DNA from: Actinomycetota bacterium
GTDB taxonomy: Bacteria > Actinomycetota > CADDZG01 > JAHWKV01
Direction: 5' to 3'
NCBI GenBank assembly: GCA_051005875.1
Contig: JBPCIX010000021.1
Span: forward strand, 5,783 to 69,782
DNA: 64,000 nt
A program made the translations under genes and the position numbers. This document shows, piece after piece, positions 1,478-49,751 of the stretch (position 1 is the first letter of the stretch; each line of letters opens with the position of its first letter). The notes under the pieces were generated by a model that had not been told where the DNA came from, made no database searches, and saw only the letters and a list, made by a program, of their open reading frames with translations.

Positions 1478-1499
1478 TGTCGGCGCTCATCCTTATAGT
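1478..1499 (+). promoter_or_regulatory. PafBC/RecA-NDp-type promoter motif driving the tRNA-like RNA
   Basis: TTGTCGGCG-N8-TATAGT. The predicted +1 (~1506-1507) coincides with the start of the acceptor stem. Confidence 0.7.
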
Positions 1500-1508
1500 T
1501 CTCGGTGT

Positions 1509-1581
1509 CCCCTGGTAGCTCAACGGACAGAGCACCCCGCTCACTACGAGGGAGATGAGGGTTCAATTCCCTCCCAGGGGA
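1509..1581 (+). tRNA. atypical tRNA / tRNA-like RNA, anticodon undetermined (CAC by geometry, ACG in an alternative register)
   Basis: 7-bp acceptor CCCCTGG/CCAGGGG, U8A9, D stem GCTC/GAGC with GG loop, T arm GAGGG-TTCAATT-CCCTC, discriminator A. The anticodon stem has a C-A mismatch and the loop CTCACTA has U37. Confidence 0.65.
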
Positions 1582-1642
1582 CTCCCGTACCGGGATCGTT
1601 TATGCGAGAATGGCAAGTAGTGAGCGGGGAACGTTGAGCTCA

Positions 1643-1676
1643 GACAGAAGCCCTTTCGGGGGCTTCTGTCGCGTTT
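1643..1676 (+). terminator. intrinsic terminator hairpin
   Basis: 11-bp stem GACAGAAGCCC/GGGCTTCTGTC around T-TTCG-G, followed by GCGTTT. Confidence 0.8.
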
Positions 1677-1849: not shown

Positions 1850-1886
1850 GAATTTCTTTCCCAAAAACTCCTATCAGGAGCCTCCT

Positions 1887-1908
1887 TGTCGGCTGTGTCT
1901 GATAGTAT
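1887..1908 (+). promoter_or_regulatory. PafBC/RecA-NDp-type promoter motif
   Basis: TTGTCGGCT-N8-TAGTAT, 7 nt before ATG 1916 (leaderless). Confidence 0.75.
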
Positions 1909-1923
1909 CGAACATATGTTCGA
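1908..1923. promoter_or_regulatory. LexA (SOS) box
   Basis: Perfect actinobacterial consensus TCGAAC-ATAT-GTTCGA; contains the start codon. Confidence 0.85.
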
Positions 1924-3129
1924 GATCGAGTTGAAACAGGCAGAATCCATCGTTGATCGGGTTATCAGCCAACTGGAACCGGAGGTACTTGACCCGGGTC
2001 TGGCGGTAAAGCTGTTCGAACGATTCGACAAACTGGGCCGCCTGATAGACGCCGGCAAGACCCTCACGACCCGCCAGGTCGAGCGCACCGGCGTTTGGCA
2101 AAACGACGGCGATCGCTCTGCCGCCCACTGGGTGGCTCGCAAGAGCGGCATGTCGGTGGGAAACGCCATTGGATTTGTTGACACGGCCAAAAAACTGGCC
2201 GATCTGCCGGCTACCGAACAGGCGATTCGCGAGGGCAAGCTCTCCGGCGTCCAGGCTAGAGAAATCGCCTCGGCGGCTTCTGCAAGCCCATCTTCTGAAA
2301 AGGACCTTTTGGATGCCGCCAAGACCGAAGGAGTAAAGGTCTTGCAGGGTCGCTGCGCCAAGGTCAAAGCTGCCGCATTGAAAGACGAGGTGTCCAGGTA
2401 TCGGGAAATTCACAGGAACCGATACCTTCGGCATTGGAGTGACTTCGATGGCGCAATTCGATTGGAGGGCCGCTTTACCCCGGACGCTGGAGCGGCTCTG
2501 TTGACAGTTCTCGAGCCGATCAAAAAGAAGATGATGGAAACCGCCCGGCAGCAAGGAAGACGAGAAAACGCATCGGCTCATGCTGCGGATGCTTTGATCC
2601 AAATGGCAGAGCACGTTAGGGATTGTCCCCAGACGCCTTCTCGTTCGGGGCCGTCCGCAACTGTGCAGGTACGAGTCGATCACTCGGCATTAATTCGAGG
2701 ATCGTGCATTGAAGGTGAGACTTGTGAATCCCTAGCATCGGCCCAATTCCGGTCGCGACCGCAAGGGCCATGGCCGAAGATGCCTTCTTGTCTGTGATCC
2801 TGACCGATGGCGCCGACATCAGGTCCGTCGTGAATCCCAAAAGGAACATACCCGCTTCGCTCCGTACCGCAGTAGAGGCCCGGGATCCCGTTTGCGTAAA
2901 GCCGGGCTGCGGATCCACAGAGCGATTGGAGATTGACCACATAATTCCGGTCGAGAATAAGGGCCCCACACAATTGTCCAATCTCGCAAGACTCTGCAAG
3001 TTCCACCATGACCAAAAGACCTACGAGTTCTACAAACTGAGCGGCGGGCCGGGGGCTTGGGTCTGGCAATCGCCGGAAGAAGCCCGCGCCCTAAAACGAC
3101 GCCCGCCGCCTTGCGAAGCACTCTTGTAG
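1916..3129 (+). pseudogene. DUF222 / HNH endonuclease (13E12-repeat-like), frameshifted at ~2727
   Basis: Alignable end to end with the intact paralogue at 48555. One A is missing at 2727-2728 (E-I-P-S-I-G-P-I-P-V-A-T restored). C-terminal CVKPGC...EIDHIIP...NLARLCKFHH HNH motif. Confidence 0.85.
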
Positions 3130-4356: not shown

Positions 4357-4378
4357 TGTCGGATCTCGTCTTTATAAT
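4357..4378 (+). promoter_or_regulatory. PafBC/RecA-NDp-type promoter motif upstream of thyX
   Basis: TGTCGG-N10-TATAAT. Confidence 0.6.
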
Positions 4379-4416: not shown

Positions 4417-5124
4417 ATGGAGCCAATTCGCCCAGGCGAGAATCCGAGCGAACTGAAGATTTTCGATCACGGCTTCGTGCGCCTGGACTCATCAATGGCC
4501 GACGACCTGTCTGTAGTCAATTCAGCAAGAGTGAGCTTCGCAGTCCGCAAAGAAGAAATGGACGACAAAGACAAGGGCTTGATCAAGTTCCTCATGCGCG
4601 AGCTTCACGGCAGCCCGTTCGAACATAACGCTTTCCGATTCCATATCCGGTGCCCGATCTTTGTCGCTCGTGAATGGTTTCGACATCGCATAGGGAGCTT
4701 TTCCGAGGAGAGTTCCCGTTACCATAAATTGGCAGACGATTTTTATTCCCCGGACCCCGCAGCCATCCGAACTCAGGTTGGAAAGCCGGGCTCCTACAGT
4801 TTTGAACCGGTTGCGGCAGAACTGGCGGAAGAAACTCTTGGTACCTTCGAAGATCAATACGCCAACGCTTACGAGGCCTACGCCGAGCTAGTAGAAAAAG
4901 GAGTGGCCAAGGAGCTTGCGCGGGCCTTGCTGCCCGTAGGTATCTACACGCAGTTTTACTGGACCCTCAATGCTCGTTCGCTGATGAACTTTCTCTCGCT
5001 TCGTAACTCGGAATTTGCACAATACGAAATAAGAACCTACGCCAAGGCAATTGAGCAATTCTTTGCGGAAAAAATGCCGATAACCCACGAATGCTTCAAA
5101 GAATCCGGAAGAAAAGCCCCGTAA
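4417..5124 (+). CDS. thyX: FAD-dependent thymidylate synthase
   Basis: HGSPFEH and the ThyX motif RHRIGSFSEESSRY; NARSLMNFLSLR. Confidence 0.97.
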   Translation: MEPIRPGENPSELKIFDHGFVRLDSSMADDLSVVNSARVSFAVRKEEMDDKDKGLIKFLMRELHGSPFEHNAFRFHIRCPIFVAREWFRHRIGSFSEESSRYHKLADDFYSPDPAAIRTQVGKPGSYSFEPVAAELAEETLGTFEDQYANAYEAYAELVEKGVAKELARALLPVGIYTQFYWTLNARSLMNFLSLRNSEFAQYEIRTYAKAIEQFFAEKMPITHECFKESGRKAP

Positions 5125-48554: not shown

Positions 48555-49751
48555 ATGTTGAATTCCGTAAATGAACTGGAAGATTCAGCCCTCGCCGGCG
48601 CAATTGCGGCTGAAATTGAGGAGTTTGCAGGCAGGATCGACTACGAAATCCTTGAGCCCAACTACGCCGAGCGCCTAGTCGAGACCTTTGCCAAAATCGA
48701 ACACATAGCGGCCCATGTAAAGGCAATGGCAGCCCGGCGTGTCGAGAGCACAGGCGCTTGGCGGCTTCAGGGATACAGGACCCCCGGTCAATGGATGGCA
48801 CGCAAGGCCGGCATATCGGTCCCCCAAGCCGAAAGAGTCCTGGAAACAGCCAAGCTGCTGGAAGAGCTTCCTAAAACCGAGCAGGCTGTGCGGGAAGGCA
48901 AGCTGTCTGAAGTTCAAGCGGGCCACATTGCTCAAGCAGCCAAAGCCAGCCCATCGTCTGAGTCCGACCTTCTTGAAGCAGCAAAGACTGAAGGAGTGGG
49001 TCAGCTAAAGGATCGCTGCGCCAAGGTGAAGGCAGCCGCTTTGGCTGATGACGTGGCCCGCCATAACGCTGTTCACAAGTCCCGTTACCTCAGACACTGG
49101 ACCGATCAGATGGGAGCTTTTCGCCTTGAAGCCAAGATGACCCCTGAGGCGGGAGCGATAGTTCTTGCAGCATTGGAGCCCCATAAGCAGCGCCTGTTTC
49201 GTGAAGCGAAAAAAGCAGGCCCGAAGGAGTCCTACGATGCGTGTGCCGTAGATGCACTCCTGTCGATATCCGAGCACTCTCGCCAATGCACCCAGGAGGG
49301 CAAAGCCCTTGGCCCCGGAACCATGGTTCACGTACGGGTGGATCACTCAGCTTTAGTAAGAGGCCGCCTTAAGCCCGGGGAAGTTTGTGAGATACCAGGA
49401 ATTGGTCCTATCCCTGTAGCCACCGCCCAGGCAATGGCCGGCGACGCCTTTTTGGCAGCTGTACTGACCGATGGGGCGGATGTGCAGTCGGTAACCCATA
49501 TGGGCCGCAATATCCCTTCACGGTTCTACACCGCTCTCAGGGAACGAGACCCCTGTTGCGTTGTTCCCGGATGCGGAAACAGAAACGATCTTCAGATTGA
49601 TCACAACCAACCGGTCTACCAACAAGGCCCCACAAAGATGGACAACTTAGCCAGACTCTGCCGATGGCATCACCATCTTAAAACTTATTATCGGTACCAG
49701 CTTTCGGGGAAGCCGGGGGCATGGGAGTGGAATCCACCCGATCGGATTTAG
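48555..49751 (+). CDS. DUF222 / HNH endonuclease (intact)
   Basis: CVVPGC...QIDHNQP...NLARLCRWHH; paralogue of 1916-3129. Confidence 0.9.
   Translation: MLNSVNELEDSALAGAIAAEIEEFAGRIDYEILEPNYAERLVETFAKIEHIAAHVKAMAARRVESTGAWRLQGYRTPGQWMARKAGISVPQAERVLETAKLLEELPKTEQAVREGKLSEVQAGHIAQAAKASPSSESDLLEAAKTEGVGQLKDRCAKVKAAALADDVARHNAVHKSRYLRHWTDQMGAFRLEAKMTPEAGAIVLAALEPHKQRLFREAKKAGPKESYDACAVDALLSISEHSRQCTQEGKALGPGTMVHVRVDHSALVRGRLKPGEVCEIPGIGPIPVATAQAMAGDAFLAAVLTDGADVQSVTHMGRNIPSRFYTALRERDPCCVVPGCGNRNDLQIDHNQPVYQQGPTKMDNLARLCRWHHHLKTYYRYQLSGKPGAWEWNPPDRI

Follow-up and report, generated by a model that had tools for sequence, protein, structure and literature searches.

In type I toxin-antitoxin pairs of the SOS response (tisB/istR-1, symE/symR, dinQ/agrB), an effector transcript induced by damage is matched by a short antisense RNA of its own, encoded next to it; their specificity comes from approximately 10–20 nt of pairing, and their distribution is patchy. 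Here, we describe a locus resembling them in these respects in the genome of an Actinomycetota bacterium, within a stretch of 64,000 nt (GenBank assembly GCA_051005875.1, contig JBPCIX010000021.1, positions 5783–69,782) that is referred to below as the window and whose numbering is used throughout. The locus contains a tRNA-shaped RNA at positions 1507–1582, designated tRNA*, and, downstream on the same strand, sequence antisense to its anticodon and D arms. With moderate confidence, we interpret it as a two-part RNA module, in which the co-encoded antisense would hold tRNA* off and which would here be driven by a promoter of the PafBC type. In contrast to the SOS pairs, the effector is a tRNA-shaped non-coding RNA rather than the mRNA of a toxic peptide, any toxicity of it would be hypothetical, and the antisense lies downstream on the same strand. 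The toxic small open reading frame (ORF) that the target RNA of a type I pair carries has no counterpart, as no conserved ORF was found. If the module acted as a toxin-antitoxin pair, tisB/istR-1 would be its nearest analogue.

The Y RNAs (YrlA; Ro/Rsr, RtcB) likewise have a tRNA-like domain whose terminal helix is closed, and the Salmonella YrlA operon is induced by DNA damage. Unlike them, tRNA* has no Ro-binding module, while it possesses a complete anticodon arm and a private antisense partner. No Rfam match to a Y RNA at the gathering threshold was obtained in the window, and a search of nine ORFs between 276 and 7723, i.e., within approximately 6 kb, revealed neither rsr nor rtcB. A second group comprises hybrid-identity tRNAs, reportedly described by Mukai and colleagues in 2017, including tRNAProX of Streptomyces and allo-tRNAs with 8/4 or 9/3 helices. 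Like these, tRNA* is an extra tRNA with the body of one identity class, the anticodon of another, and an acceptor helix of unusual length, whereas those families are not characterized by an arginine body with a valine anticodon, by a 9-bp acceptor helix combined with a normal T stem of 5 bp, or by a cognate antisense RNA.

T-box riboswitches are also RNAs that read a tRNA by anticodon pairing. A T-box, however, pairs over 3–4 nt, leaves the tRNA folded, and leads a regulated gene, whereas the module pairs over 13–16 nt and with the D arm in addition, would unfold the tRNA, and has no regulated gene downstream. No T-box was matched by Rfam in the window or at six related loci; the terminator follows the antisense directly, and then comes a pseudogene remnant. 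In the 3′ external transcribed spacer of leuZ (3′ETS-leuZ), a stretch adjoining a tRNA gene again acts through RNA-RNA pairing, but its partners are unrelated small RNAs and not its own tRNA. The first-pass annotation of the window, a model's reading of the letters and ORFs, had set the locus apart from known tRNA mimics by its architecture, and Rfam 15 gave no non-tRNA match at E ≤ 1 for the unit or for the six related loci. We know of no tRNA or tRNA mimic with a dedicated antisense partner, and full-text literature searches did not find a tRNA with a cognate antisense RNA described.

Anatomy of the Locus

The features of the unit, given as position, strand, description, and basis, are as follows.

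1478–1499, + strand: PafBC-type DNA-damage promoter (−26 element and −10), TGTCGGCGCTCATCCTTATAGT; match to the published motif
1507–1582, + strand: tRNA*, with the cloverleaf at 1509–1581; ARAGORN and Rfam RF00005
1583–1595, + strand: small hairpin TCCCG-TAC-CGGGA, then TCGTTTAT; terminator-like match
1603–1611, + strand: possible weak extended −10, TGcGAGAAT, ending 5 nt ahead of G1617; read from the letters
1617–1629, + strand: antisense block 1, GTAGTGAGCGGGG; complement of tRNA* nucleotides 27–39
1632–1640, + strand: antisense block 2, CGTTGAGCT; complement of tRNA* nucleotides 9–17
1643–1678, + strand: intrinsic terminator, stem GACAGAAGCCC/GGGCTTCTGTC with a 6-nt loop, then GCGTTTGG; inverted repeat and fold

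A tRNA-Val(CAC) is called by ARAGORN at 1509–1582, the cloverleaf proper occupying 73 nt (1509–1581), and the score of 55.9 bits with the Rfam tRNA model RF00005, against a cut-off of 29 bits, places tRNA* within the tRNA family. As had been noted in the first-pass annotation, the acceptor, D, and T arms of tRNA* follow the canonical pattern, and the same holds for the tertiary positions (U8-A14, A15-U48, G18G19, G53-C61, and T54-A58). The anticodon arm, by the same early account odd and yet real, has the stem CCCCG/CGAGG with a C29–A41 mismatch and the loop CUCACUA (CTCACTA in DNA), in which the anticodon CAC is followed by U37; it reads so in the sequence, and its nucleotides 27–39 are matched letter by letter by the antisense. 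A pyrimidine at position 37 is very unusual in tRNAs generally. CCA is not encoded at the 3′ end.

The antisense begins 36 nt after the end of tRNA*. Block 1 pairs with the 5′ strand of the anticodon stem, the entire loop, and C39, forming a perfect 13-nt inverted repeat (1535–1547 vs. 1617–1629); two bases further, block 2 pairs from A9 through the 5′ strand of the D stem into the D loop, in a perfect 9-nt repeat (1517–1525 vs. 1632–1640). Both complementarities, proposed earlier from inspection, were recovered as inverted repeats, and nucleotides 18–26 of tRNA* are precisely skipped between them. By a rough estimate, the chance expectation for two such collinear perfect matches (13 and 9 nt) inside approximately 170 nt is about 1e-8. 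The terminator, too, has the proposed GC-rich 11-bp stem (1643–1653/1660–1670), and the antisense part in the window consists of the seed and the terminator only. The fold of the entire transcript has z = −6.2 relative to shuffles. The antisense-paired fold (−84.7 kcal/mol) is favored by 15 kcal/mol over the best fold keeping the cloverleaf (−69.5 kcal/mol).

The hairpin at 1583–1595, which has a 13/15 direct repeat at 1456–1470, could act as a weak terminator or mark where tRNA* and the antisense part are separated by processing. Since the 35-nt spacer between them has no TAnnnT hexamer and contains merely the imperfect extended −10 (TGcGAGAAT) and this weak hairpin, the antisense in the window may be co-transcribed with tRNA* as a trailer.

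Recurrence of the Module in Other Phyla

The tRNA*-antisense unit is absent from 41 relatives and from the other species among 113 of its class; with no close relative carrying it, the covariation analysis rests on distant or analogous modules. A total of 185,579 species genomes were scanned for tRNAs that combine a GCTC/GAGC D arm with the loop CTCACTA, yielding nine tRNA-Val(CAC)-U37 loci. Four of the nine, three from Dehalococcoidia and one from Nitrospirales, carry a stretch of 11–13 nt at 43–79 nt downstream on the same strand that is perfectly antisense to the anticodon arm of the tRNA itself. More members were found by searching around the genomes hit by the scan and in IMG/VR, which gave 13 further units in total besides the focal one, from Dehalococcoidia, Nitrospirales, and two viral contigs. 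The phyla represented are Actinomycetota, Chloroflexota, and Nitrospirota. The class is delimited by at least 11 nt of antisense to the anticodon loop and stem of the unit's own tRNA, located on the same strand and no further than about 140 nt downstream, and the focal unit, with 13 nt, falls within it.

The loop of the tRNA and the corresponding part of the antisense change together, as is also seen between two paralogous modules in one Nitrospirales genome and within a tandem pair in one Dehalococcoidia genome. The combinations observed are:

tRNA loop CTCACTA, antisense TAGTGAG
tRNA loop CTCACGA, antisense TCGTGAG
tRNA loop TTGACGA, antisense TCGTCAA
tRNA loop TTGACTG, antisense CAGTCAA
tRNA loop TTGACTA, antisense TAGTCAA
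tRNA loop CTAACGA, antisense TCGTTAG

A D-arm complement 6–8 nt in length comes after the seed in L044a, L048, L094, L054, L056, and L050 (labels beginning with L denote modules and loci) and is interrupted in L042 and L043 of the L042 group. In most relatives, the antisense starts 5–7 nt after promoter-like boxes (a TTGACA-like −35, about 17 nt, and a TAnnnT-like −10, all read by eye and some of the −10 boxes imperfect) and ends in a terminator, and hence looks like a separate small RNA of 60–100 nt. It thus appears that the antisense part in most relatives is a small RNA gene with its own promoter. Its earlier description as a trailer stands as to position, 1617–1640 being downstream of tRNA* on the same strand, and does not extend to these relatives. 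In the L042 group, the small RNA contains a further ~80 nt of conserved sequence beyond the seed.

The ordinary tRNAs of the same loci (Trp, Arg, Ala, Lys, Glu, and most Met) have nothing comparable, with the sole exception of a tRNA-Met in L079. In this Nitrospirales relative, tRNA-Met(CAT) at 1496–1570 has, 31 nt downstream, an uninterrupted stretch of 30 nt that is perfectly antisense to its nucleotides 10–39; this could be a tRNA-antisense unit of a different kind or a fragment that was inverted. In L044, the second tandem module lies approximately 265 nt downstream of the first; its tRNA is of the Val-GAC type with U37 and a GC-rich T-loop insertion of about 24 nt, and its small RNA has several G.U pairs and a near-identical terminator (the same hairpin and U-tract).

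Other patterns retrieved nothing further. A metagenome scan with CCGCTCACTAC-N55-85-GTAGTGAGCGG produced five unrelated palindromes only, and no match was found in a contig pattern search with all loops fixed or in a viral scan for the exact T arm and acceptor. One candidate, L034, was discarded as an unrelated intron-containing phage tRNA. Another, L037 343–444 on metagenome contig Ga0196965_1000014, has a 19-nt inverted repeat, TTCCCCGCTCACTACGCTC/GAGCGTAGTGAGCGGGGAA, with 15 nt in common with the focal seed; its arms enclose no tRNA, and it is unrelated and probably due to chance.

Covariation Between tRNA* and the Antisense

Twelve modules were aligned on a 17-pair helix, in which 89.2% of cells are paired vs. 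68.6% in column shuffles; none of 500 shuffles, a control that ignores relatedness, reaches the observed value. Changes on both sides were observed for 12 of the 17 pairs, and sliding the partner strand by 1–3 columns leaves 35–46% of cells paired. The duplex energy of tRNA and small RNA averages −48.9 kcal/mol for cognate combinations vs. −33.6 kcal/mol for non-cognate ones. Thus, the proposed check for covariation in homologues came out in favor of pairing. Since the complementarity recurs with compensatory changes in other phyla, it is likely to be functional rather than accidental, and chance and pseudogene explanations were rejected for the same reason. Compensating mutations in three phyla are the strongest evidence for a functional RNA-RNA interaction that sequence alone can provide.

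The type of mismatch tolerated points to RNA. Over 14 modules, the helix core comprises 182 Watson-Crick pairs, 15 G.U, 1 A.C, and 12 others, and the 15:1 ratio of G.U to A.C fits pairing of RNA made from this strand rather than a DNA palindrome. This bears on the possibility that the repeat is a DNA-level feature without a role as RNA, being either an operator, an att site, or the target of a recombinase, or else the product of a decaying tRNA pseudogene that happened to be duplicated in inverted orientation. The patchwork region around the focal unit, with a second ssrA, toxin-antitoxin pseudogenes, and restriction-modification genes, would suit such an origin, and covariation alone cannot separate RNA pairing from homogenization of repeat arms. 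In addition to the G.U asymmetry, however, the design recurs in three phyla with different sequences, the repeat precisely omits nucleotides 18–26, in most relatives a −10-like box precedes the antisense by 5–7 nt and a terminator comes after it, and no recombinase adjoins the copies whose neighboring ORFs were read (with Pfam for the window only). We consider a DNA-level origin very improbable.

Two other readings of the antisense were tried and rejected. A small ORF within it is not conserved, as the short GUG frames in the seed region vary in length and are absent from the GAC-type modules. The canonical tRNA-Val of the host is not a plausible target either, the seeds matching merely 4–5 nt of those loops.

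An Extra tRNA Gene with a Closed Acceptor Helix

The leader bases G1507 and U1508 pair with A1581 and C1582 (as U-1:A73 and G-2:C74), giving tRNA* a closed 9-bp acceptor helix in place of the free 3′ end of a canonical elongator tRNA-Val. Both the −1:73 and −2:74 pairs are present in 13 of the 14 modules vs. one of the 43 other tRNAs of the focal genome; the former is U:A or C:G depending on lineage, and hence covaries, and the latter is G:C or G.U. A helix closed from the start of the primary transcript would be expected to impede RNase P and to deprive the RNA of a free NCCA end; its closure at 9 bp by the leader bases argues against ordinary aminoacylation.

The valine tRNAs of the focal genome form a normal set: Val-CAC, which lies on contig C22, Val-TAC, and Val-GAC share the acceptor GGGCGC and have A37. 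The body of tRNA* is different: its acceptor is CCCCTGG with C1:G72, it has U37, and its nearest relatives in the genome are arginine tRNAs (76% identity to Arg-TCT and 74% to Arg-ACG vs. 65% to Val-CAC), whose D arm is almost identical to its own; it also has A20. A20 is the main identity mark of arginyl-tRNA synthetase (ArgRS), and A35, C36, and A73 are the main identity elements of valyl-tRNA synthetase (ValRS). All three ValRS bases can be read in tRNA*, from which charging could at most be predicted. By these comparisons, tRNA* is an extra gene that joins a body of the arginine-tRNA type to a valine anticodon.

The same organization is seen in the relatives, whose extra tRNAs have an Arg-like acceptor (GCCCCGG or GCCCTCG), A20, U37 or G37, and an incomplete CCA although the tRNAs of their hosts encode CCA. 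A35 and C36 are invariant across modules, and positions 32, 34, 37, and 38 vary. Position 37 is U or G and never A in the 14 antisense-paired units, an observation that is only partly independent, as U/G37 was a search criterion for several members (first through CTCACTA, later as K at 37). The focal unit fits this class in being an extra gene with an Arg-type body and A20, an N-A-C anticodon, U/G37, and paired −1/−2:73/74. Throughout the class, the Arg-type body has C3:G70, the N-A-C pattern of the anticodon is constant, and the loop is 7 nt long. The eight Dehalococcoidia module genomes checked have canonical valine tRNAs with A37 and encoded CCA, all three anticodons being recovered in six of them, and one canonical Val-GAC was recovered from a Nitrospirales module genome.

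These data also bear on whether the locus simply encodes an active extra tRNA-Val, a conditional decoder of GUG codons under stress whose maturation is delayed by the self-complementary trailer or small RNA. The core of tRNA* is fully canonical, as reflected in the 55.9 bits of the Rfam score, and A35, C36, and A73 are conserved in the family, as such a role would require. Yet the Arg-type body, the residue at position 37 (U or G and never A, with the reservation made above), the pairing of −1/−2 with 73/74, the incomplete CCA where host tRNAs encode it, and the canonical valine tRNAs already present in the module hosts that were checked all speak for another function. An ordinary extra tRNA-Val is therefore a poor candidate in our assessment, and tRNA* is probably not an ordinary decoder.

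The PafBC-Type Promoter and Its Regulon

The promoter at 1478–1499 (TGTCGG-N10-TATAGT, 22 nt), already recognized as PafBC-type in the first-pass annotation, is an exact match to the in vivo PafBC consensus tGTCgg(N10)tA(N3)T (PMC8635444); that paper on PafBC makes no mention of tRNA. In the 1.8-Mb focal genome, the motif occurs 62 times vs. approximately 18 expected from base composition, and about 25 of the sites have a start codon 6–10 nt after the −10, which is a signature of leaderless transcripts. Downstream genes include radA, ruvC, dnaN, two UvrD/AdnB-like helicases, a RecB-like nuclease, comM, comF, and thyX (named by eye from their N-termini, with thyX and a DUF222-HNH copy of the window confirmed by Pfam). 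Five genes of the DUF222-HNH (“13E12-like”) type are also preceded by a PafBC-type motif and have leaderless starts. Several of the genes with the motif additionally bear a LexA-type box, GAAC-N4-GTTC. The genome encodes tandem WYL-domain proteins (319 and 331 aa) in the pafB-pafC arrangement.

Given the consensus match, the enrichment of the motif at repair genes, and the pafB/pafC-like genes, the assignment to the RecA-independent PafBC regulon stands: judged by these features, 1478–1499 is a genuine PafBC-type damage promoter in this genome. Transcription would be expected to start at the seventh or eighth base after the −10, T1506 or G1507, and probably at G1507. The cloverleaf had been proposed to begin at the predicted start itself; the cloverleaf was confirmed, and the start moves to 1–3 nt ahead of its first position. 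Within the module class, only the focal copy has a PafBC promoter. To our knowledge, no tRNA-like RNA has been known in the PafBC regulon.

Proposed Mechanism and Distribution of the Module

The first part of the module would be an extra tRNA-shaped RNA with an arginine-tRNA body, a valine-type NAC anticodon, a non-A residue at position 37, and an acceptor helix that its two-base leader closes at 9 bp. The second part would be the downstream RNA from the same strand, whose first 24 bases are antisense to the anticodon and D arms of the first. With a PafBC-type promoter driving the unit, the RNA should be made after DNA damage. Pairing over 13 and 9 bp would constitute the off state: since it is incompatible with the cloverleaf, the antisense may keep tRNA* unfolded or mark the duplex for cleavage. 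On this model, both parts would be transcribed, pairing would inactivate tRNA*, and the closed end would keep it out of ordinary aminoacylation.

If confirmed, this would be a new kind of regulatory RNA pair and a natural case of switching a tRNA fold by strand invasion, and it would link the actinobacterial PafBC damage response to a tRNA-like effector in the focal genome. More tentatively, the modules may represent a cross-phylum class of RNA switches, in which a hybrid or non-decoding tRNA is gated by a private, co-evolving antisense; after damage, tRNA* would outrun the antisense and act on translation or on the tRNA-handling machinery. This broader proposal is possible and still doubtful. 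Were it true, the released tRNA* could cause growth arrest, translational reprogramming, or titration of a synthetase, and the modules would exemplify a general, undescribed way of controlling tRNA-like RNAs.

Several observations weigh against the two-part module. The alignment of the helix was anchored on the 5-nt complement of positions 33–37, and it is the 12 other columns that are independent; seven of the G.U pairs represent one inherited position in related Dehalococcoidia. The focal unit is the sole one among the 113 species of its class and lacks a close homologue, and no clear separate promoter precedes its antisense part. Some look-alike tRNAs (L040, L046, L146, and most viral matches) are intact although the adjoining 1 kb contains no antisense, and some antisense RNAs lack a partner tRNA*, from which it follows that the two parts are not strictly interdependent. 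On the sequences compared, the four alternatives weighed in this paper would nevertheless rank below the module of two RNAs.

Modules are sparsely distributed. They were found in two of 301 genomes of an even Dehalococcoidia sample; around genome G041, 18 of 151 genomes gave a BLAST match, of which about 10 carry the module or its small RNA and the rest ordinary Arg or Trp tRNAs. One Nitrospirales genome contains two copies (the paralogues L048 and L094), and L044a and L044b are arranged in tandem. In three Dehalococcoidia genomes (L053, L055, and L057), the small RNA is apparently intact, while the partner tRNA is absent, or 5′-truncated and no longer matching the seed.

This pattern invites comparison with an RNA-only toxin-antitoxin pair, in which free tRNA* would be harmful, the antisense RNA would be the antidote, and DNA damage would tip the balance; the harm may come from miscoding at GUN codons, from jamming of ValRS, ArgRS, or the ribosome, or from a signal of uncharged tRNA. 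A damage promoter driving the effector and an adjoining antisense are what such a system would have, and its patchy distribution (one of 113 species in the class of the focal genome, in addition to the Dehalococcoidia counts above), duplication within genomes and in tandem (L048/L094, L044a/b), two copies on viral contigs, and decay in the expected direction, with the antisense kept while tRNA* is truncated or lost, all agree with it. We nevertheless regard a toxin as unlikely: there are intact tRNA* look-alikes whose surrounding 1 kb is free of antisense, the acceptor end is closed, which speaks against charging and hence against miscoding, and the Dehalococcoidia copies reside in stable syntenic housekeeping contexts.

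The orphan small RNAs could also mean that the small RNA is the true regulator, acting on other targets, and that tRNA* is a dedicated sponge or decoy titrating it, much as the 3′ETS of a tRNA precursor soaks up RyhB and RybB. In L053, L055, and L057, the promoter-like boxes, the downstream sequence, and the terminator are kept after the loss of tRNA*, and the ~80 nt conserved beyond the seed in the L042 group would be at home in a regulator. But the seed changes fast and always in step with the loop of its private tRNA*, so that an mRNA target would need the same changes, and the antisense RNA in the window is just a seed and a terminator. A sponge role for tRNA* hence seems improbable to us, and we retain the reading in which the antisense serves to hold tRNA* off.

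No protein gene travels with the module in copies whose neighbors were read. A protein partner was accordingly rejected, the neighbors differing by lineage (thioredoxin-like lipoprotein, aroQ, glycine-cleavage, and mtnA-like genes, named by eye). The roles suggested in the first-pass annotation, namely, a decoy for anticodon nucleases, a substrate of RtcB or Ro, and a regulator of ssrA-mediated rescue, found nothing in their support; no ssrA, PIN, Ro, or RtcB neighbors were seen in the relatives examined (some relatives only, by Pfam or by eye).

Genomic Setting

Two further features adjoin the unit.

1058–1416, − strand: second ssrA (tmRNA) copy, divergent from the tRNA* unit; Rfam tmRNA, 114.4 bits
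1887–1923, + strand: second PafBC-type promoter (1887–1908) and LexA-type palindrome TCGAACATATGTTCGA; motif scan and inverted repeat

The divergent ssrA and the PIN remnant (PIN_10, Pfam E = 0.002), both pointed out previously as neighbors, were confirmed. The native ssrA follows smpB on contig C41 (27865–28220), as in all relatives compared, and ends exactly at the contig end; the window copy has no flanks in common with any relative compared and is thus non-syntenic. The two full-length copies are sister sequences with 81–84% identity. Conserved synteny of the unit with ssrA was rejected, as none of the 31 loci scanned (tmRNA loci of 30 related genomes and one other) has a tRNA beside ssrA and the window copy is the second, non-syntenic one. 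Both copies keep G3:U70 and the tag end ...GTC GCA GC(A/T) TAA, with a synonymous difference, and an in-frame TGA occurs four codons upstream of the tag end.

A 718-bp cassette comprising the second ssrA, tRNA*, and the antisense is situated between a frameshifted DUF433 gene (787–1013) and the PIN_10 remnant (~1735–1809). Normally, a DUF433 antitoxin and a PIN_10/DUF5615 toxin are encoded side by side as a toxin-antitoxin pair. Close to the two ends of the cassette is an imperfect inverted repeat with arms of 17 nt (1039–1055/1658–1674). Further to the left are a VapC-like gene and a type I restriction-modification system, and to the right is the frameshifted DUF222-HNH gene. Judging by this gene content, the surroundings of tRNA* are a patchwork accessory region. 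The possibility that contig C21 is a binning contaminant was considered and rejected; near-identical duplicated core genes were not found.

The second promoter (1887–1908) precedes the frameshifted DUF222-HNH gene at 1886–3129; other DUF222-HNH copies are located at 48555–49751 of the window and on contigs C38, C48, and C68. A PafBC-type motif, TGTCGGATCTCGTCTTTATAAT, is also present at 4357–4378, upstream of thyX (4417–5124). A family of small proteins (M.V.ERSRH.L..KLEKVLG.E.A...M.L.PP.GWG..ATKRDLD...) is encoded behind PafBC-type promoters at 348–689 of the window, where the gene is frameshifted, and at C54:17547 and C71:1873. Finally, the genome has two copies of tRNA-Val(TAC): an intact one at C78:18232–18304 and one at C13:73575–73648 with a foreign 5′ half and a near-identical 3′ half and downstream flank, which looks like an att duplication of an integrated element.

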